Assembly (NCBI GenBank): GCA_039638295.1
Contig: JBDIWJ010000022.1
Span: forward strand, 1 to 26,471
Direction: 5' to 3'
DNA from: Candidatus Phoenicimicrobium oleiphilum
GTDB lineage: Bacteria; Atribacterota; Phoenicimicrobiia; Phoenicimicrobiales; Phoenicimicrobiaceae
DNA: 26,471 nucleotides
A program made the position numbers and the translations under genes. Each line of letters opens with the position of its first letter. Within the stretch, counting starts at the first letter, position 1. Of this stretch, positions 9,649 to 24,347 are shown one piece after another. Below the pieces are notes generated by a model. That model was not told the DNA's origin. It ran no database searches and worked only from the letters and a program-made list of their open reading frames with translations.

Positions 9649-10938
9649 TTAATACTCTATCTTATTCATCCCCACATAAATAGAGGTGGTCTCACCAGCA
9701 TATACCCATACATCCTCTACCCAGGTTCTATATCCATCTTTAACTAAAGTAATCTCATACTCCCCTTCTTTAATTTCCTCCAGGATTTTTGGTTGAGAAG
9801 AAGAGGACGCTGCCTTATAAGTTCCGTTTATAAATATTTTTGCTCCAGTTACATTACAGTAAATTGCCAGGGAACCATACTTTATTTCGGGAACCAAATA
9901 AGCAGATACCGTGCGAGTTTGGTTAGCTACAACCAAAATAGTGTTAACCCAGTCCTGATAGCCATCTTTGGTAATCATTAATTCGTGATAACCCGATTTA
10001 ACATTCTTTATTTCTACCGACTGGTTAGCATAAGTTCTTCTCTGGTAATTTCCGTCTAAATAAATCTTAGCGTTACCTTGATTACAATAAACAGAAATCG
10101 AACCGTAGACAGGTAAAGGAACCAAATCAGCTGAAACTGTAGTAGTCCGAGAAGGTGAAACTGATACATAATCACTCCAATCCTGATAACCTGCCCTTTC
10201 CAATTTAATATGATGCTGCCCAGCAGTAACTCGGTCTAAATTTAAAGGAGTTAATCCTTTATAAACATTATCCAGATATACCTTAGCCCCTTGAGGTTGG
10301 GAAGTTACTATAATCCTACCATAATAAGTGGGAGGTGGAGTGATTGGCCTTACTGTATAACTTAATAGATTACTGGAAGTCCAGGCAGTAGGAGGCATAG
10401 ATACTATTATACCTTTCAGGGTAATGGTAAAGTTTTTAAAATCTTTGCTTATTTCTGGCATTATTTCCTTAGAAATTAATTCTTTTTCTCGATCATCTAA
10501 AAACATGGGTCTGGTGGTAGCAAATCCCTGCACATATTCAACTCCTGGTCGGGTATGGGGGTCAATTACTCCTTCAATCGCTTTAGTTTCTCCCGCTCTG
10601 ACAAAATTGTCTGGGGTATACCGATTGGGGAAGATAATTTTTACCCTACCTTCGGTATCGTAGTTATAAATCTTTACATAAGAATCCCGAGAAACCTGAA
10701 AGAAAATTCTAATCCTCTCTCCGGGGGAATAAATATATCCTCTTTCTTTATCCAGCCATAATCTAAGAGAAAATGGGGGATGAGGATTGATAATCTGGAT
10801 GCTTTTCATCTTCTCTGTCTCTTCTTGAGTTTGGGCGAAATTAACTCCAGTAGTAATCAAACAAAGAGAAAGGACTAAAGCAGCAAAAATGTAGCTAAAA
10901 ATCTTTCTTTTCTTTATAAAAAGTATGCGATTTAACAT
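9649..10938 (-). CDS. Exported DUF4384 + three-PEGA-domain protein
   Basis: Signal peptide; YSPGERIRIFF...KIIFPN (DUF4384-like); three repeats of YG.I.V....GAK.YL(D/N)G....G.H...I.K.GY.(D/T)W; GGAGG RBS. Confidence 0.8.
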   Translation of the reverse strand: MLNRILFIKKRKIFSYIFAALVLSLCLITTGVNFAQTQEETEKMKSIQIINPHPPFSLRLWLDKERGYIYSPGERIRIFFQVSRDSYVKIYNYDTEGRVKIIFPNRYTPDNFVRAGETKAIEGVIDPHTRPGVEYVQGFATTRPMFLDDREKELISKEIMPEISKDFKNFTITLKGIIVSMPPTAWTSSNLLSYTVRPITPPPTYYGRIIVTSQPQGAKVYLDNVYKGLTPLNLDRVTAGQHHIKLERAGYQDWSDYVSVSPSRTTTVSADLVPLPVYGSISVYCNQGNAKIYLDGNYQRRTYANQSVEIKNVKSGYHELMITKDGYQDWVNTILVVANQTRTVSAYLVPEIKYGSLAIYCNVTGAKIFINGTYKAASSSSQPKILEEIKEGEYEITLVKDGYRTWVEDVWVYAGETTSIYVGMNKIEY

Positions 10939-15798: not shown

Positions 15799-16908
15799 TT
15801 ATCTTATGGATGTTCCTTTTATCATCTCCAATATCCAGGGCTGGGCTTGATTATATTTATCTGCTGGAACAGTTACGATTATCATAAAAGGTGTACCAGG
15901 ATAAGTAACCACAAGTGTGGCGTAATTTATATTATCCTGCGGATTAAACTTAGAATAAAGCTCAACCAAAGCCTGTCTGCTTCCAGCTTGCAGCTGGCTT
16001 TGCCCGTGAAACTGATGATTGGGTTTAATCTGATTTACCATACCCTGAACATATTGTTCTCCCAGAGTATACATAGCTACAATACCTGCACCATCAGGTG
16101 TGTTTAAGACTACACCTATTTCAGTAGTTTGAGTAGTAGTGCTACCAGCAGGAATGGGGATGCTGAAACGACCCTGGGGATCTGTATAGATATTCATTCC
16201 AGCAGTCGCTGGAGGTTGAATGGGTATACTAGGAGTACTTGGAACCGGTGTTGTTACAGGTGGTGCAGTTGGTTGAGGGGTAGGACAAATAACTGGTGGA
16301 GTAGGAGTTGTGGTTGGTGGAGTAGGAACTGGTGTCGATGGTACAACTGGTTGAGGGGTAGGTTGAATTGCTATTGGTGCCCCACTTTGCACTTGAAAAC
16401 TCGCCACTGCTTGAGCAAAACCTGGTTCCACTTGAGCAAAATAATCAAGTAAAACATCCAAAAGGATAGTATAGGCAGAGTTACCACTAACGAACATATA
16501 AGCTTCTGCTTGTAAAGTTAATCCGGTCTGAGGGCTGAAAGCAAAATTCTTTTTTATTGCGGGTAAACCAAAAATAGATGTAGGAAGTTGAGTCCCGGGT
16601 TTATAGCCAGGAAGCTGTTTAAAGCCATTTTCTTCCGCTGCTGCTGCGTATTGGTCTATACTTGCACTAAAGGGTAATTCTTCAATCATTACAATTAATT
16701 CTCCCACAATCCTTTGTTGAACCGAATAAGTAAAATAGGCTGCTTGAGAAGAATCGTAAGGAGTAGCAGCTTTCCAACCGGCAGGTAGGTTAAAGGAAAA
16801 ACGACCTTGAGGATCAGAATAAAGGCTCCCCTGACCATAAACTATCCCCATACTTAATACTAATACAATTAAAATTATTCCTATAATTAATCTACATTTT
16901 ATTCTCAT
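15799..16908 (-). CDS. Exported protein with two PsbP/DcrB-like domains joined by a Pro/Thr-rich linker
   Basis: Signal peptide; YSDPQGRFSFNLPAGW and YTDPQGRFSIPIPAG domain starts; PTPQP/PTPPTT linker. Confidence 0.7.
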   Translation of the reverse strand: MRIKCRLIIGIILIVLVLSMGIVYGQGSLYSDPQGRFSFNLPAGWKAATPYDSSQAAYFTYSVQQRIVGELIVMIEELPFSASIDQYAAAAEENGFKQLPGYKPGTQLPTSIFGLPAIKKNFAFSPQTGLTLQAEAYMFVSGNSAYTILLDVLLDYFAQVEPGFAQAVASFQVQSGAPIAIQPTPQPVVPSTPVPTPPTTTPTPPVICPTPQPTAPPVTTPVPSTPSIPIQPPATAGMNIYTDPQGRFSIPIPAGSTTTQTTEIGVVLNTPDGAGIVAMYTLGEQYVQGMVNQIKPNHQFHGQSQLQAGSRQALVELYSKFNPQDNINYATLVVTYPGTPFMIIVTVPADKYNQAQPWILEMIKGTSIR

Positions 16909-17043
16909 TACTTTTTTCTCCTTTCTATTTTTATAATATTAATGTTTAGTAAATATTTTTCAGATTAACCCTTTTTCCCCTGTCTTCTCTCTGGTAAAGA
17001 AAGGGGAAATAACCTATTTACCTAACTGTAACATACATCTCAC

Positions 17044-20000
17044 CTATCTGTAATCTCCAATCAGGATAAATCCTGCCCAGGCAACGGGGAGACCATATTC
17101 TTGCGCTAATTCTCTTTGAGCTCGACCGAGAGCTTCTACTTTAGCCATTCCCTCCTGTTTCCAGTATCCAAAAAATTTTATAAAAAGTTCCATTGTGGGC
17201 CTATCAAATACACTCCACAAACTGGCGATTACTGTGGGAGTGCCAGCATAAAGAAATGACCTCACCAGACCTATTAACCCTTCAGCTTCGCTTAATTTAC
17301 CTAATCCAGTCTCACATGCACCTAAAGCCACTAAATTGGCTTTCAAATCTAGTGAAAATACCTCATAAGCCCTTACTTCTCCATCATTTTTTTCATCTTT
17401 AGCTAAACAGATTATACTATATAGAGGTCTTTGGTCATCAGCTAATCCGTGGGTAGAGAGATGAATTACATCAAAATTAGAACAAATTTCCTTAAATTTC
17501 GTCTCAGTAGCTTCTTTACCGATAAAAACATCATTATAAATGAAATTTCGAGCCGTAATCTTAACTTCCTCCGCACTCAAAGGCAAGGAAGGTAGATCGG
17601 TTCCTTCAAAAGAGGGATTACCAAAACCAAGATAACTCTCCTGATTTCCTCTATTTTTCCCCAAGCAATAGTAATAGACGCTGGCAGAAGGGACATAAAA
17701 TAAATTATATCGGTCTACTAAAAATCCATCTTCACCCTTTAATGCCTGAAAAGGAAGGTAAAAAAGGCTGCGATGAGGAATTATCCCTATGGTAGTCTTA
17801 TCGCCTATTAGAGCTTCTACCGGGGTAAAAAGTATCCGGTAAAGTTCCTCACAAATCTTCTGATAGTCATAGTCACCTTCAGTAGCAGTAAAAGCCTTCC
17901 GAGCCTCTTCAATTTTTTTATTAAGATTAATGTCTTTTATACTTATCTCTTTAGTCTTTACCCCCCCTTGTTCTATCGCCCATACTAAAATCCTATCTTC
18001 GGTATTATAATAATCTAATAAAACAATTTCTTTATCTAAAATCCCCCTTATTTTATCTAAAGTAAGAGGATTGATGGTAACTAAAGAGGCTACTTCGGGA
18101 GAATAGTAATTTAAATCTTCTTTTACCTGATAATAAATTTGTTGAAGTTTCTTTTGAATCTTTTGTAATTCTTCTAAATAAGCAGTGTTTTGTTGTTCAG
18201 TCGGTTTAGATCTTTCCTGGCGTTCCTTTTCTTGAAGAGAGGTAATCCTTGTTTCTACATCTTGAAGTTTGCTAAACATCTCTTTATCTTTATCTTTTAC
18301 TTCCAGTATTGCTCCTCCCAGGATATCTAAAAAACTACGTGCTCGTGCCCTCTCCGTATAATCAAAAGCCTCTTCAAATCGGCCTAAATCCCAGAGAACT
18401 TCTATAGTCAAATCATAAGCTAAAAGTTTATTTTCAAAAAAACCTCTCTTCATTTCGGCAGAGGTAAGTTTTTCTCTTAATCCTTCTAAAATGTCTATAG
18501 CCTGTTTAAAGTAAGTAAGGGATTCTTCTCTTTTCCCTTGTTCTAATAATATTCGCCCTAAACCAGTCTGACAATACCAGATCATCTGGGAATAATTTAA
18601 TTTTTGAGCTAATTCTAAACTTTTTTTAAAATATTCTTCTGATTTGGTCACCTCCTTCATATCCAGGTAGATAGTCCCCAAATTACCATAATCCAAAGCC
18701 AGATCAAAAGGCATATTTAATTCCTGGTGAATCCTTAAGGCCTCTAACTGGCTTTCTAAAGCAAGTTCTAAATTGCCCAGATGTTGGTTTAAAGAGGCAA
18801 AATTATTCATTAAGGCTGCAATTCGGGGCTGAATATTTAATTTTTCATAGATTTTCATTGCCTCGGTATAAGCAGCAATCGCATCCTTATACCGCTCTTC
18901 ATTATTATACACTACCCCCAGATTCATCCAGGCATCAGCTATAGTTAAAGGATAATTTAAATTAGTCGCCAATCGAAGGACCCGGGTAATATAATTTTCC
19001 GCCTTCTTTAAATCATTAGTCTGTAAATAAAGGCTTCCCAGGTTGGTATATACCCCTATATCTCCAGGCATATTATATAATTGAATAAGCTCCTCTGCTT
19101 CCTCTAAGACCTTCCTGGCATTTTCAAAATCTCCTTTATCCAGGTAGATAATTCCCATATTATTGAGCACCCAAGCCTCCTGGTAACCCAGTTCCATTTC
19201 CCACGCCAATCTCTGTCCATCTATTAGATACTGTAGGGCTTGATTAGAATCTCCCCAGGCTTCATGAGAAAGACGGGCTAAAGAAAGTTTAGCCGCAAAT
19301 TCTCCGCACTTAAAACCGTTCTCTAAACTGACCTGTAAGGAGGATTCACAAACTTGCTGGGCTTTTTGGTAATCTCCTCTTTCAACATAGACATAAGCCA
19401 AATTGTTTAAAGATAATGCAGTTATTTCTACATTTTCAGCCCGAGTAGCTAAATCACAGGAGTCTAAGAAATATTTTTCTGCTTTTTCTAAGTCTCCTCG
19501 ATAAAAAGATATTATCCCCAAACTTAAAAAGGTAGAGGCTTTTCCAGAAATATCTTGAAGCTGTTCAGCTAATTGGTAAGCAAGTTGAGCGTATTCTTCG
19601 GATTTATCCAAATCCTGGTAACTTTGATATATGCCGGCCAGGGTAATATAAACCTTCATAATCCCTGAATTATCTTGCAAGGCTTCATATTTTTCTAATG
19701 CTTGAGGAAGTACCTGATGGGCTTCATCATCCTTCCCCTGACGATACCAGGCTCTCCCCTGATAATAAAGGCTATCTGCAAGTAAATCATCTTCCCCCTG
19801 AGAAAGCGCGAGGGCTTTTAAGATATTCATCTCTTCTATTAGGCGAGAATATTGACCGGTAAGATAAATTTGGTCAGCCCTACACTTGATATATTTAATT
19901 ACTTCTTCCTGCTGTTCAGGTGAAAGAGAGGTAATATCCAGAGAATAAGACAAAAAATCCTTCTTTTTAATCTCATTTTCCACCCATAGAGAGGGCTCAA

Positions 20001-20139
20001 ATTCAGTGTCGGGTAGACTTATAACTGTTCCATCATTTAAAGTTATTGAAACCCCTTGGCCGAATAAAGGAAATAAAAATAATATCATCAAGCTGATAAT
20101 TATCCCCGTTAGGATTATAAAAGTACTCTTACTCTTCAT
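17044..20139 (-). CDS. TPR-repeat + CHAT (caspase/separase-like cysteine protease) protein with N-terminal signal/anchor
   Basis: About 10 ~40-aa TPRs (SLNNLAYVY, VLNNMGIIY, AWMNLGVVY, DYGNLGTIY), ERARARSFLD, IIPH.SL..LPF.AL, VIHLSTHG (His), LGACETG (Cys), ASLWSVFD, WAGFILIG. Confidence 0.92.
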   Translation of the reverse strand: MKSKSTFIILTGIIISLMILFLFPLFGQGVSITLNDGTVISLPDTEFEPSLWVENEIKKKDFLSYSLDITSLSPEQQEEVIKYIKCRADQIYLTGQYSRLIEEMNILKALALSQGEDDLLADSLYYQGRAWYRQGKDDEAHQVLPQALEKYEALQDNSGIMKVYITLAGIYQSYQDLDKSEEYAQLAYQLAEQLQDISGKASTFLSLGIISFYRGDLEKAEKYFLDSCDLATRAENVEITALSLNNLAYVYVERGDYQKAQQVCESSLQVSLENGFKCGEFAAKLSLARLSHEAWGDSNQALQYLIDGQRLAWEMELGYQEAWVLNNMGIIYLDKGDFENARKVLEEAEELIQLYNMPGDIGVYTNLGSLYLQTNDLKKAENYITRVLRLATNLNYPLTIADAWMNLGVVYNNEERYKDAIAAYTEAMKIYEKLNIQPRIAALMNNFASLNQHLGNLELALESQLEALRIHQELNMPFDLALDYGNLGTIYLDMKEVTKSEEYFKKSLELAQKLNYSQMIWYCQTGLGRILLEQGKREESLTYFKQAIDILEGLREKLTSAEMKRGFFENKLLAYDLTIEVLWDLGRFEEAFDYTERARARSFLDILGGAILEVKDKDKEMFSKLQDVETRITSLQEKERQERSKPTEQQNTAYLEELQKIQKKLQQIYYQVKEDLNYYSPEVASLVTINPLTLDKIRGILDKEIVLLDYYNTEDRILVWAIEQGGVKTKEISIKDINLNKKIEEARKAFTATEGDYDYQKICEELYRILFTPVEALIGDKTTIGIIPHRSLFYLPFQALKGEDGFLVDRYNLFYVPSASVYYYCLGKNRGNQESYLGFGNPSFEGTDLPSLPLSAEEVKITARNFIYNDVFIGKEATETKFKEICSNFDVIHLSTHGLADDQRPLYSIICLAKDEKNDGEVRAYEVFSLDLKANLVALGACETGLGKLSEAEGLIGLVRSFLYAGTPTVIASLWSVFDRPTMELFIKFFGYWKQEGMAKVEALGRAQRELAQEYGLPVAWAGFILIGDYR

Positions 20140-20213
20140 CAATTTTTCTTCCCATAATTTTATTTATTGGATAGTTTTCCAAAAAACAACTAATTTTTCC
20201 TTAAAACAAAATA

Positions 20214-22535
20214 TTATTTTACCACTCCCAAAGCCCTCTTATAACTAAGTATCATCCGATTGAAATATTTTTGTTCTTTCTCTATGAAAATATTCTGAGG
20301 TGCCTGGGTTAAAATAACATATCCCATTCCAGAAGAAGGGCCATAAACTCCAGTATAGATAACATAAGTTTCTATATTAAATCTAAAAATAGTTTCCTGG
20401 TAACTCCCCTGTAAATTTACCTTACCTTCAGTTACTTCTATCGCCCCACTACCAGGAGTGGGTACTATTTTAAATTCCTGATTTAATATAGATAAATCAG
20501 TAACCTGTTGTTGTAAAAGATAAGTCATTTGCTGAGCAAGGTCTTGAGCACTGTTAAACTGCCCCATTAAACCGGGGAAAAGGGTCAAAGAAGTAAGCCC
20601 ACTGGCGTCTTCAGAAAAAGTAACATTTCTATTAAAGGAGTCTAAATTTACCAACCACGTAGATGGGTACTCTAAATAACCAGTAATTAAGGGATTATGA
20701 CTAAAAGCTTGATTTAAACTGTATTGTTTCCAGATTATCTGGGGTTCTTGAGGAGTACCCGGAGTAGGTAAAGCAATTCCACCAGGTCCAGGCTGAGATG
20801 GAACAGGCTGTCCTGGAGGAGTAAGAGTTATTCCTCCTTGAGCAGGTGCGCCGGGTGCAGGACTAACTATTCCTTCTGGTCCAGTAGCTGGAGAAGTTGT
20901 CCCCGGAATAGCTGTAGTGGTCTGTGGGGTAGTGGGAGAAGGAGTAGTCGGAGTTAAAGAAGGTAAAATCTCCCCTTCTCTCTTTACGCCTATTTCAGGA
21001 TTAACTTCCTTACCTATATCTGAAAAACAACCTCCTAGAAAAGATGAAGAACGATATTGTGGGGAAGTAATGAAACTTCCTATTTTAGAACTTAATTTTT
21101 GTAAGGAAGAACCTATAGAAATATCCTCTTCAACTCCTCTCTTGGCGTTTCTTAAAATCCAGGTTTTTTCTGAAAGAGGAGCTCTACTAACTTTTATTTG
21201 AGAGATAGTGCCCTCTCCTAAATTTTTTATAGGAGAACCTAATTGATCAATTACTCTTCCTCGAAAAGTTGTACTTATATTAGAATTAGTAGTTGGATTA
21301 AAGGCTATCTCTCTCCCTAATCCCCTAATATAGGAGAAATTAAAATTTGTCGGATAAAAACTTCTGATAGCTAAACTCTGAGAGGAAATTTTTCTCCCCA
21401 GAGAAGCAGGGAATAAATTAGCATAATTTCCTAACATAATTCTTTTAGAAACTGCCCAGGGGAAAATTGGATTTTCTGGAAATAGACGCACTAATTTTGA
21501 ACCAAAACCTCGTGAAATAAGAATAGGTTTAAAATATTTAAAAGGTTTACTATAACTCTTGTTTATTCCTCTTGGATAATTAAATTGATTGATTTCTTCA
21601 GAAAATCCTCTCGTCTGCGTCAAATTTTCTGAGTAATTTATATTAATCTTATTGTTATTCCTTACTCCTATCTCTTTCGGAACCTTTATTGACCTTTGGA
21701 CTGGAATAGGTTTTCCACACCCGGGACAGAACTTATAATCCGGCTGTAGTGGTGTTCCGCAATAAGGACAAAACTTAATAGTAATTTCTTCAGTAGTAGA
21801 TGAAGTAGTAGAAGAGGAAGGAGCCTCAGTTGTAGTAACTACTGAAGTTACATCAGATACTGGAGGTACTGGCTCTGTTGTTCTCTCTGACACAGTAAAG
21901 CTATTAAACATTGTCTCCAATTGAGGTAATATTTGGTCAAATTTATCTCGCACTACTTGACCTTCTAAAATATAACCCTTTTTGTCTTTTACCAAATAGA
22001 CATCAACTGCTTTAATAGGAATCTTTGAATTATCCTCTTTGTGTATCTTAGTCCAAGTATAAAGCCTTTTTATAGCCGGTAAACCCCCAATAGTTATCGC
22101 TTCTTCATTAATTTTATTATATTCAGGCATATTTTTTGGGTCTAACATCCATTCTTCTACAGAAATAGCATAACTTGCTAATGATGAATCATAATTTTCA
22201 ACATATACCGAAAAAGCAGCTATTATATAGTCTCCCTCAAAGAGATCAATCTCTGCTTTACAAGTCCCTGTATCATCCATCTCATAATAGGGTTCCCAAG
22301 TTTCAGGATAACTGAATTTAAAACTGCAATCAGGGTCAGAATAAGAATAAATATTGGGAACGAATACCGTCTCAGGGATAGCAGAAGGAGAAACTGGGGG
22401 AGGAGTAATATTAGTAGTAGGTGGAGTGGGAGTTGGACTGCTTTCGGTTAAAGAAGGCAACCCCTGAGCCAATCCTGCACTTCCTAAAGTTAAGATTAAA
22501 ACTAAAGCAACAAAATAAAAAATTAATTTTCTCAT
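20214..22535 (-). CDS. Exported multidomain protein: PsbP/DcrB-like domain, double zinc ribbon, degenerate Arg-Gly repeat region, Pro/Gly/Thr linker, probable second PsbP-like domain
   Basis: Signal peptide ending AGLA; YSDPDCSFKFSYPETW; CPYCG...CPGCG; GYLEYPSTW; ATG 22535 preferred because GAGGTG (containing the GTG at 22544) serves as RBS. Confidence 0.7.
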   Translation of the reverse strand: MRKLIFYFVALVLILTLGSAGLAQGLPSLTESSPTPTPPTTNITPPPVSPSAIPETVFVPNIYSYSDPDCSFKFSYPETWEPYYEMDDTGTCKAEIDLFEGDYIIAAFSVYVENYDSSLASYAISVEEWMLDPKNMPEYNKINEEAITIGGLPAIKRLYTWTKIHKEDNSKIPIKAVDVYLVKDKKGYILEGQVVRDKFDQILPQLETMFNSFTVSERTTEPVPPVSDVTSVVTTTEAPSSSTTSSTTEEITIKFCPYCGTPLQPDYKFCPGCGKPIPVQRSIKVPKEIGVRNNNKININYSENLTQTRGFSEEINQFNYPRGINKSYSKPFKYFKPILISRGFGSKLVRLFPENPIFPWAVSKRIMLGNYANLFPASLGRKISSQSLAIRSFYPTNFNFSYIRGLGREIAFNPTTNSNISTTFRGRVIDQLGSPIKNLGEGTISQIKVSRAPLSEKTWILRNAKRGVEEDISIGSSLQKLSSKIGSFITSPQYRSSSFLGGCFSDIGKEVNPEIGVKREGEILPSLTPTTPSPTTPQTTTAIPGTTSPATGPEGIVSPAPGAPAQGGITLTPPGQPVPSQPGPGGIALPTPGTPQEPQIIWKQYSLNQAFSHNPLITGYLEYPSTWLVNLDSFNRNVTFSEDASGLTSLTLFPGLMGQFNSAQDLAQQMTYLLQQQVTDLSILNQEFKIVPTPGSGAIEVTEGKVNLQGSYQETIFRFNIETYVIYTGVYGPSSGMGYVILTQAPQNIFIEKEQKYFNRMILSYKRALGVVK

Positions 22536-22612
22536 TTCGTTCACCTCTTTTATAAAAAATTTATGAAAATATTTTCTCTCCTATATATTTATACTTACCT
22601 TCTATGGTTTAC

Positions 22613-22642: not shown

Positions 22643-22752
22643 TTATACAAAAAAAATTAAAACTTTTTAAAGTACTTCTAAATATATTATTAATGAATAA
22701 CCTCCTACATCATCTCCATATAAAAGTGCAAATATTTCCAAAATAAAAAAAG

Positions 22753-22837
22753 CAGGCAGTCTGACAATCGTAGTATTAAAATGCCTTAGACCCATAACTT
22801 TGCGTCCTATCCTTTCGGATAGTTTGCCTTTTTCAAC
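22753..22837 (-). ncRNA. Cyclic di-GMP-I (GEMM) riboswitch
   Basis: Minus strand reads GGCAAACTATCC-GAAA-GGATAG-GACGCAAAG-TTATGGGTCTAAGG...TACGAT...CTGCC: GNRA-capped P2, GCAAAG junction, CTAAG/TACG receptor and GGCA/TGCC P1; U-tract follows. Confidence 0.92.
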
Positions 22838-22972
22838 TTTGTAAAATAATTATCCCATTTATATTATTCCCTAAATTCACTAATTTTAGACCTGATTTTA
22901 GGCAATATCGAAATACACCCCTTACGCCTTATAATTTAATAAAAAGTAGTCTGTCCTCTTTTATATCTCTTA

Positions 22973-23187: not shown

Positions 23188-23209
23188 CCGAAGGTAAAAA
23201 GGTCAATCG

Positions 23210-23340
23210 TTTTTTTACGCTGAATTTCCTAATCGGAAAACCGGCGAACCAAATTTAGGGGCAAATCTTATTTAAATAATAAGTAAGGCAATCCATTCAG
23301 CTTGAAACCATCAGCTAACCACGTAAGCGTTGGAGGTGGA
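23210..23340 (+). ncRNA. Cyclic di-AMP (ydaO/yuaA) riboswitch
   Basis: CGCTGAAT...GAACC...AGGGGCAAATC...GTAAGG...GAAACCATCAGCTAACCACGTAAGCG matches the ydaO consensus blocks; sits upstream of K+ transport genes, the established context. Confidence 0.88.
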
Positions 23341-23375
23341 ATGATTTTATAAATATATTTGTTATTAACAAATAG

Positions 23376-23468: not shown

Positions 23469-24347
23469 GTGAACCTCTTGAAAATAATTATCATAGGAGC
23501 AGGAAAAGTTGGTTGTCAAATAGCTAAAACTCTATCTTCAGAAAGTCATGACGTAATATTAATTGAAAAAGATAATACAGTTCGACAATCTGCTCAAAAT
23601 AGTTTAGATGTACTCACTATTTTAGGCAACGGAGCCAATGTTCATACTTTAGAAGAATCAGGAATCAAACAAGCAGATATGTTAATTGCAGTAACTAATA
23701 GCGATGAGGCAAATATACTTGCCTGTATGACCGCTAAAAAATATGATGTTCCCAAAAAGGTTGCTCAGGCAGAAAGCTTTGCTGGAGGAAAAGTGCAAAT
23801 TCTTGAACTTAAAATCGAAGGAGATTTTCCTTATATTAACCAAAGACTAAAGGATATTAAATTTGAATATCCTATATTAGTGGCTGCTATCTTTAGAAAA
23901 GATAAAATAATTATTCCTGATGGAGAAGAAAATATAGTTTTAGGTAATAATTTATATGTTTTAATCGAAAAAGATAATCTCCTGCATTTAAAAGAATTTT
24001 ATAAGCTGATACATCCTCAAGCAGTTACTCCTATCAGATTGGGAGATAAAGTAATTTCTGAAGATGTGATACGCAATATTACTGGATTTTTCTTTCTATA
24101 TATCTTAATTTTTGTAATTTGTACTTTTATAATGTCTTTGTTAGGATTGGATATATTAAGTGCTATGGCTTCAGTTGCCGCTACTTTAGGAAATGTAGGA
24201 CCAGGCCTCGGTTTGGTTGGACCAGCCCAGAATTATGCTTTTATACCACCCTTGGGGAAAATTACTTTGATTCTCTGTATGCTATTGGGTAGATTAGAAA
24301 TATATACTGTATTAATTCTGGTTGTTCCAGAATTCTGGCGGAAATAA
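23469..24347 (+). pseudogene. In-frame chimera of the TrkA N-terminal half (internally deleted) and the TrkH C-terminal ~115 aa
   Basis: TrkA: IIIIGAGKVG, AVTNSDEANILAC, SFAGGKVQ, AIFRKDKIIIPDG. TrkH: KLIHPQAV, ATLGNVGPGLG, MLLGRLEIYTVL, FWRK. Confidence 0.7.

Follow-up and report, generated by a model that had tools for sequence, protein, structure and literature searches.

The 26,471-nucleotide stretch analyzed here (the window; contig C22, JBDIWJ010000022.1, of a 1.65-Mb genome of Candidatus Phoenicimicrobium oleiphilum, completeness 91%) raises the question of what role is played by a long basic tract, punctuated by Arg residues, in a protein encoded directly ahead of a TPR-CHAT protease. 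The original prediction had proposed that this tract is a multi-site substrate or peptide precursor of the adjacent protease. Our analysis established the array itself, selective conservation of its arginines, modular deletions within it, the cassette in which it resides, an intact catalytic dyad in the protease and a riboswitch match. We surmise that the first gene of the cassette (gene 1) may encode a polyprotein substrate that is cut after Arg by the TPR-CHAT protease, a reading of sequence evidence to which we give even odds (a probability of roughly 0.5). Gene 1 and its parts, in their order along the protein, are as follows (pLDDT, predicted local distance difference test).

20214 to 22544, minus strand: gene 1 (P0001), 776 aa, likely start Met4 at 22535
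22449 to 22535, minus strand: signal peptide read by eye, residues 4-26, then QGLPSL, the predicted mature N-terminus
21888 to 22361, minus strand: PsbP/Mog1/DcrB-like domain, residues 62-219, model pLDDT 76-94
21705 to 21773, minus strand: CPxCG...CPxCG zinc ribbon, residues 258-280 (PF13240 at 258-279, above cut-off)
20975 to 21710, minus strand: Arg-bounded tract, residues 279-524, about eight units, between the zinc ribbon and a Pro-rich linker
20955 to 20981, minus strand: R522 then EGEILPSL, matching in position the one T-R↓SGLPSL site that short relatives have
20229 to 20744, minus strand: C-terminal domain, residues 601-772, after the Pro-rich linker

The tract lies where the original prediction had placed it, at 20975-21710 of the minus strand within the open reading frame (ORF) 20214-22544; all 12 of the motifs listed at that time are present, and Gly, Ser, Asn or Ala follows 12 of its 18 arginines. 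RG and RS pairs exceed compositional expectation, as evidenced by: 1) 20,000 shuffles of the tract, with motifs picked post hoc after the sequence had been seen, in which we obtained 6 RG vs. 1.53 expected (p 0.0016), 9 R[GS] vs. 3.80 (p 0.005) and 12 R[GSNA] vs. 5.75 (p 0.0014); 2) a ranking of 1183 ORFs of the genome by R[GS] per 245 aa, where the tract came first (9; next 7). The tract is also markedly basic, with 36 Lys plus Arg vs. 16 Asp plus Glu (net +20). Of 1155 candidates in a search with the tract, 57 proteins carried it, with identities of 47-100%; since one of the 57 represents the window's own cluster, the alignment holds the query and 56 others. No relative outside its own cluster was found in Pfam, the ESM Atlas or a 50%-cluster search, and a 7-locus tract profile run against 1.84 billion representatives recovered that cluster alone, indicating that the tract is lineage-specific.

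Within this family, eight Arg residues are near-invariant (94-100% of covering rows), namely Q-R-S 284 (57/57), T-R-G 312 (55/55), S-K-R-I 368 (51/52), I-R-S 394 (50/53), F-R-G 428 (56/57), L-R-N 465 (54/56), Y-R-S 498 (56/56) and K-R-E 522 (56/56), with all eight being present in 42 of the 57 rows. Four more are kept in 72-91% of rows (V-R-N 295, 52/57; P-R-G 325, 44/54; S-R-G 345, 39/54; K-R-G 469, 45/56). Most of the motifs first noticed were thus conserved, the exceptions being YIRG 407 (4/56) and VSRA 454 (21/56), and two of the near-invariant arginines, R368 and R522, had been overlooked; both are dibasic and lack a small residue after Arg, being followed by Ile and Glu, respectively. 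Six of the eight sites read mostly R-S/G, R284 also R-T, and dibasic sites in the tract are limited to R368, R469 and R522. In site logos, T, F, L, Q or K precedes the Arg, with Glu at P4 at R522 only and partly at R295.

To what extent is this conservation peculiar to arginine? On trees for which 7 gapped rows were set aside, leaving 50 of the 57, columns that change at most once comprise 7 of 16 for Arg vs. 1 of 18 for Lys, 7 of 103 for polar residues and 31 of 224 for all non-Arg columns (Fisher tests for the Arg contrasts, 0.0004 and 0.006). The 49 close CHAT proteins that served as control keep Arg (23/40) and Lys (39/68) alike, and the preference for Arg over Lys therefore belongs to the tract. 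The ratio of nonsynonymous to synonymous substitution rates (dN/dS), estimated from 5 genes in non-independent pairs, was 0.26 for the tract, 0.20 for the PsbP domain, 0.09 for the C-terminal domain and about 0.5 for the Ser/Thr linker, for which one pair was saturated. On the tract's own tree, changes per site numbered 6.25 vs. 5.39 for the PsbP domain; a seemingly linker-like rate (7.4 vs. 4.0) turned out to be an artefact of a domain-built tree. As judged by these sequence comparisons, the tract is real and selected. In alpha-2-macroglobulin-type baits, a hypervariable linker harbors sites for many proteases. The term bait region, also put forward in the original prediction, fits the tract poorly because baits vary, while the Arg sites here are fixed and dN/dS is 0.26.

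The near-invariant arginines, together with the weaker R345, bound units of 23-37 residues.

21693, 21609, 21441 and 21363, minus strand: codons of boundary R284, R312, R368 and R394
21261, 21150, 21051 and 20979, minus strand: codons of boundary R428, R465, R498 and R522
21510, minus strand: codon of R345, a weaker boundary
Residues 285-312, 313-345, 346-368, 369-394, 395-428, 429-465, 466-498 and 499-522: the units
21003 to 21242, minus strand: the three clearest amphipathic cores, residues 435-446, 477-488 and 503-514

Mean net charge per unit ranges from +1.9 to +3.8, with +0.6 for the last. What recurs among the units is not the RG..EEI pattern proposed earlier, but a conserved apolar-Gly core of the form apolar-G/S-x-x-apolar-x-x-apolar-G/S-x-x-apolar, seen as LGSPIKNLGEGT (435-446), IGSSLQKLSSKI (477-488) and LGGCFSDIGKEV (503-514). 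The internal repeat is significant in profile-profile windows: the best off-diagonal match over 12 columns (435 vs. 503) scored 26.0 where column shuffles gave 15.8, with 1 in 300 as high, and the third-best 21.0 vs. 12.5 (0/300); hhalign recovered the 435/503 pair weakly (E 0.026). At the DNA level, two cores share a 23-nt repeat at 78% identity; no strong DNA repeat was found in the tract, only 7 short families at 71-87%. In-frame deletions were present in 7 of the 57 homologues, comprising six distinct events of 13 to about 110 residues (up to four units), and several of them fuse like points of two units (I-D-Q/I-D-Q, Y-P/Y-P-E-N-L, G-x-K-L/G-K-L), while R284, R522 and LP(S/L)(L/I) were retained in all. 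Judging from these sequences, the tract is modular, with units lost in frame.

These deletions, six distinct and up to about 110 residues long, also bear on an account that we regard as unlikely, in which the entire tract would fold conditionally as a single domain, inserting into a membrane or self-assembling (as a helical bundle or fibre former), once cuts at its two ends unmask it; the inner arginines would then be structural, e.g. in lipid head-group contacts. A single domain would agree with the apolar periodicity, which peaks at 90-100 degrees (3.6-4 residues, z 2.3-4.1; a second signal at 170-180 degrees was seen on one of two scales only), with a FoldIndex of +0.04, with a length of 240-249 in 47 of 50 rows and with a rate near that of the PsbP domain. 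It agrees less well with the deletions, or with Arg being kept and Lys not accepted in its place. The AlphaFold model of gene 1, from a shallow alignment of 45 rows, gave a pLDDT below 50 for the tract, a weak point against a fold and in effect uninformative, since the C-terminal domain was modelled poorly as well (30-60); with such a model, fold searches effectively covered the N-terminal domain only.

The candidate enzyme is encoded next in the cassette.

17044 to 20142, minus strand: TPR-CHAT protease (P0002), 1032 aa, with signal peptide
17449 to 17451 and 17314 to 17316, minus strand: codons of the catalytic dyad, His898 and Cys943

P0002 is a member of the CHAT family (PF12770, E 6e-60, 203.6 bits vs. 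a cut-off of 24), with TPR families ahead of the CHAT domain, and is the sole CHAT match in the genome. Its His/Cys dyad is intact in 52/52 close and 66/66 distant homologues. The P0002 model matches separase best, including the complexes with securin and SCC1, as well as Csx29 and DdvA; by sequence, a PDB search with the CHAT domain gave one weak match, and the full profile gave only TPR matches among the 60 listed. E859 and D980 are invariant in all 118 aligned CHATs and, being kept in every one, do not discriminate; E859 occupies the helix start after the first strand, the place given for gingipain Asp163 (PMC4626109). Predicting a complex of the protease (95-1032) with residues 490-536 of the partner returned a score of 0.00, which speaks neither for nor against an interaction. 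We rejected the notion that other CHATs carry R-G/S in a loop of their own, which the partner here would supply in trans, with 1 such loop in the 22 of 66 distant CHATs that could be parsed (44 unparsed) and a background of 0.065.

The match to separase in complex with securin suggests a possible, if doubtful, account in which the tract is an extended ligand along the TPR solenoid, holding, inhibiting or activating the protease; its arginines would be binding or pseudo-substrate anchors, at most one or two of them (R522, R284) would be cut, and no functional peptides would be freed. The mature protease has a net charge of -48 vs. +20 for the tract, many apolar residues in the tract are fixed, and securin and Scc1 bind via spaced motifs that include LPE, as described in PMC10317155, with LPSL recurring here. 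However, by the same paper, securin swaps the P1 Arg for an apolar residue, whereas the Arg here is fixed; deletions of up to four units exist; and short-form CHATs, which have no tract beside them, are acidic too (TPR net charge -8 to -21 vs. -17 to -31 in long forms), for which reason charge complementarity was dropped as a trait specific to the long form.

Two side observations concern the protease itself. At R566 (residues 564-567, window 18442-18450, minus strand), close CHAT homologues read M-K-R-G (49/49) and short-form CHATs D-R-I/T/V-C/A-F; judged by this pattern, R566 may be a self-cleavage site, though it sits inside a predicted helix. In addition, a hairpin motif, L-x-N/D-G-x-x-I-x-LP, starts the mature CHAT protein here (window 20020-20060) and sits in gene 1 of G085 (L049:12527-13489) and of related short forms.

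If the tract is a substrate of this protease, do the two travel together? In a set of 86 genomes from the phylum, 3 carry the tract, each directly ahead of TPR-CHAT and gene 3, and it precedes TPR-CHAT in 4 of 4 metagenome loci (one locus ends within the CHAT gene); in G009 (L015), gene 1 stops short of the tract, and neither CHAT nor gene 3 is left. A sister class has the same cassette with a short gene 1 (260-320 aa) comprising signal peptide, Pro-rich linker and C-terminal domain. In the Arg-poor N-terminal linker of these short partners, R-G/S was found in 6 of 8 encoded beside CHAT vs. 0 of 16 elsewhere (5 orthologues without CHAT and 11 paralogues), with 24 of 30 loci scored (3 long forms and 3 fragments left out; 5 further matches lacked a locus). 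In G075, gene 1 abuts gene 3, no CHAT match is present, and gene 1 reads TQSGLPPL where its kin read TRSGLPS. Of 18 short homologues, which overlap with the genome set, 8 read T-R-SGLPS, 1 G-R-SLPSL and 2 I-R-SLAL, 1 has no R-G/S, 3 have QSGLPSL or QGSLPSL immediately behind the signal peptide and 3 are N-terminally incomplete. A cut after Arg would yield the very N-terminus that signal peptidase leaves in site-less copies, which to us is the chief reason to favor processing. Both versions occur in the long form, with QGLPSL after the signal peptide (xQGLPSL in 47/57 rows, xQELPSL in 7/57) and K-R522-EGEILPSL after the tract.

The same loci address the notion that the arginines serve another peptidase, an Arg-modifying enzyme or the binding of an anionic polymer, DNA or the cell wall, linkage with CHAT being historical. 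We deem this distinctly improbable: site and CHAT co-occur in several lineages and were lost together in G075, and polymer binding would accept Lys. In its favor, G063 and G070 keep CHAT without a site, and other peptidases may be missed in a genome that is 91% complete. Searches of that genome for caspase, clostripain and subtilase gave no match, with positive controls (subtilase control 8/14); a gingipain search was run without a positive control, and the single trypsin-family match is HtrA-like.

Apart from these comparisons, decay of the cassette recurs, as in L015 (G009), L090 (G075, CHAT deleted), L095 (G058, 101-aa remnant) and L053/L063 (G079, frameshifted gene 1 and split CHAT). The sister class also harbors a paralogous module (L051:3-3056, L016, L078-L086) in which a C14-like WD40-caspase, with a Q-R-G-L linker after its catalytic Cys, is fused to a gene-3-like domain and followed by a paralogue of the gene-1 C-terminal domain that lacks Arg sites. 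The same partners are thus combined with two distinct clan CD proteases.

In weighing the polyprotein reading, the idea of a substrate or precursor draws on Arg conservation, in-frame deletions, a linked protease with an intact dyad and single-site short relatives, while several findings count against it: 1) two of the eight invariant sites are K/R-R↓I (R368) and K-R↓E (R522) and not R↓G/S, with which the strict R↓G rule first proposed falls; 2) 31 non-Arg columns are as fixed as Arg (e.g. IS-x-x-F and FP-x-x-P-x-x-PW), which is what a fold or a bound state would require; 3) units vary in length, the first two fit the core poorly, and with the slightly positive FoldIndex composition alone does not call disorder; 4) a CHAT-vs-caspase profile comparison, made to map the Arg-binding S1 residue, gave no alignment, and Arg specificity is not to be assumed since the sequence preference of Craspase CHATs is weak, their cuts falling at L↓D, M↓K and A↓S (PMC11106740); 5) G070 and G063, whose contigs overlap by 141 identical bases, keep CHAT beside a partner that has no R-G/S, kin are not independent, so that on a tree the contrast of 6/8 vs. 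0/16 comes down to some four site-bearing lineages and two losses alongside CHAT, one of the six site-bearing loci (G079) is a broken cassette, and the three site-less QSGLPSL/QGSLPSL homologues were compared by sequence only; 6) of the 6 other intact long-form loci, 3 were positive in riboswitch scans, as was none of the scanned short-form cassettes.

Under the polyprotein reading, cuts at the tract arginines would separate two folded domains and free short, mostly cationic amphipathic peptides. We postulate five steps, in order of falling certainty. First, and most certain, all three cassette proteins would be exported. Second, an ancestral partner would have had one pro-segment site, T/I-R↓S/G before LPSL, where a cut would give the same N-terminus as signal peptidase in site-less copies. 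Third, insertion of a PsbP-zinc-ribbon module ahead of this site (now R522) in the present lineage, together with a unit that expanded in tandem, may have given rise to a polyprotein. Fourth, the acidic TPR solenoid might thread the basic tract toward the active site; binding of released peptides by the TPR solenoid, also suggested at the outset, found no support in our analysis. Fifth, and least certain, the freed peptides could act at the membrane or surface under control of cyclic di-GMP (c-di-GMP), with the PsbP-like domains serving as carriers or immunity proteins, a role proposed on account of peptide amphipathy, the riboswitch and the likeness of the N-terminal domain to PsbP, LpqN and SciW/EagT6.

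That domain matches cyanobacterial PsbP (VIA Z 17.1, root-mean-square deviation 2.4, 146 aligned), and its fold also resembles LpqN, the Eag-type chaperones SciW/EagT6, DcrB and immunity proteins, a shared fold that shows no function. The C-terminal domain alone makes up the entire mature protein in distant Atribacterota; a PsbP-like strand order is suggested, not established, for it, and hhalign aligned it with the N-terminal domain at E 0.018 only. Gene-1 variants of 839-934 aa were also seen (P0029, P0031, P0032, P0056, P0057 and P0059), with a tandem pair of PsbP-like domains before the zinc ribbon in the five inspected.

The cassette consists of three co-directional minus-strand genes led by gene 1; by eye, each protein has a signal peptide ending before Gln-Gly, the predicted mature start of all three (window 15799-22544). 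Its other elements are listed here.

15799 to 16908, minus strand: gene 3 (P0003), 369 aa, with signal peptide, PsbP/DcrB-like domain, Pro/Thr linker and second domain
22752 to 22838, minus strand: c-di-GMP-I riboswitch (RF01051, 77.2 bits vs. gathering 35), 207 nt upstream of gene 1

Gene 3 stands after the CHAT gene in both classes and is devoid of R-G/S pairs. The riboswitch was found at the same position in L013, L022, L025 and the decayed L015, and not at L014, L023 or L024. Five c-di-GMP-I riboswitches reside in the genome, the other four preceding a pilin-like gene, an HD-GYP-like gene (named by eye) and two signal-peptide proteins. Promoter and terminator scans gave results at chance level only.

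Neighbors of the protease gene comprise PsbP-like proteins, radical SAM genes and trk genes. A signal-peptide DUF4384-PEGA protein (window 9649-10938, minus strand) lies 5 kb downstream of the cassette and is also found in G009, where the cassette is missing. A c-di-AMP riboswitch (window 23208-23344, plus strand) precedes the trk potassium genes here and at the loci of six relatives, and a 292-aa TrkA-TrkH fusion (window 23469-24347, plus strand), with two internal deletions vs. L022, where the genes are separate and encode 451 and 480 aa, is probably a decayed remnant.

An assembly artefact or frameshift was excluded by 57 homologues in one frame and by a contig of run X1, perhaps the source sample itself, that covers the whole tract and for which no difference is listed within it; X2 and X3 contigs barely cover the tract. 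The libraries in which the stretch is present (3 of 6 listed runs) come from two studies that sampled crude oil and oil fields, the evidence being contigs and not transcription data. Its relatives are named Candidatus Atribacteria, Atribacterota or Caldatribacteriota, with a few homologues labelled Omnitrophica or Caldisericota, as deposited.

How does this cassette compare with known systems? In the literature covered, outside which lie most subscription papers and supplements, we found no description of the cassette or of a multi-site CHAT substrate, nor does the accessible part of the SAVED-CHAT preprint (10.1101/2023.06.23.546230) give a cleavage site. New here are the multi-unit Arg-bounded array, its single-site and site-less counterparts and a riboswitch ahead of the cassette. 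Exported TPR-CHAT proteases have received little study; according to PMC11506125, knowledge of TPR-CHAT proteins is scant, the trigger of the one periplasmic example described there being not known. The cassette provides a candidate substrate, points to the residues for mutagenesis and exists in natural variants that have eight sites, fewer, a single one or none.

Among CHAT systems, HetF of Anabaena PCC 7120, the namesake CHAT protease, cuts PatU3 at R117↓S118, with the context TNYR↓SPET deduced from mutated residues (PMC9457339). Like the cassette, this pairs a CHAT protease with a dedicated partner and an R↓S cut, and the tract has QYR↓S, IR↓S and QR↓S; unlike it, HetF makes one cut in one substrate and keeps its CHAT domain apart from periplasmic TPRs, whereas here both protease and partner have predicted signal peptides and there are about eight candidate sites. 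Craspase (Csx29/Csx30, type III-E CRISPR) likewise combines a TPR-CHAT with a nearby-encoded substrate cut in a linker, but it is cytoplasmic and RNA-activated, with a single non-conserved site (L↓D, M↓K or A↓S; PMC11106740). Identity with Craspase, whose loci combine Cas7-11 and a CRISPR array with Csx30/Csx31 next to the protease, was rejected: the window contains no CRISPR genes, the neighbors are PsbP-like, radical SAM and trk genes, and signal peptides are present. Separase, with Scc1 and securin, is the best fold match of P0002 and cuts after Arg in unstructured motifs, aided by distant docking motifs (PMC10317155), but it is eukaryotic and nuclear, has an ExxR consensus and is 11-12% identical to P0002; its (S/D/E)xExxR motif was absent from the site logos of the tract. 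DdvA of Myxococcus xanthus is, like P0002, a TPR-CHAT outside the cytoplasm, but is a membrane anti-sigma factor with proposed self-cleavage and no separate multi-site partner (PMC11506125).

Closest in design are the Kex2-processed polyproteins of fungi, i.e. Rep1 of Ustilago with 11 surface-active peptides, Ece1p of Candida with eight peptides in 271 aa, and the KEPs (PMC12153327, PMC3133707, PMC9769878), which work much as proposed for gene 1, in that a signal peptide is followed by a series of short units, which cleavage at basic sites turns into amphipathic products. Gene 1 shares with them the signal peptide (by eye), a significant internal repeat and modular deletions. The systems are not homologous, and the fungal ones rely on dibasic KR and a Golgi subtilase, whereas the candidate sites of gene 1 are mostly single arginines, its cassette encodes a clan CD protease, and folded domains lie at both ends. 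A Kex2-type precursor was rejected, with R368, R469 and R522 the only dibasic sites and no subtilase match in the genome. Our most tentative proposal, on the unlikely side as a whole, is that of a bacterial counterpart of Rep1 and Ece1: a c-di-GMP-controlled cassette that would export a precursor along with its own separase-like protease, with about eight cationic amphipathic peptides coating surfaces or oil-water interfaces or attacking the membranes of competitors, PsbP/Eag-like domains carrying or neutralising them, and the array having grown from the single pro-peptide site still found in the sister class. If peptides are indeed released, this would add a bacterial route to multi-peptide products, missed by mining rules built on known peptidase families, in a lineage found here in oil-field samples and with a precursor design otherwise familiar from fungi.

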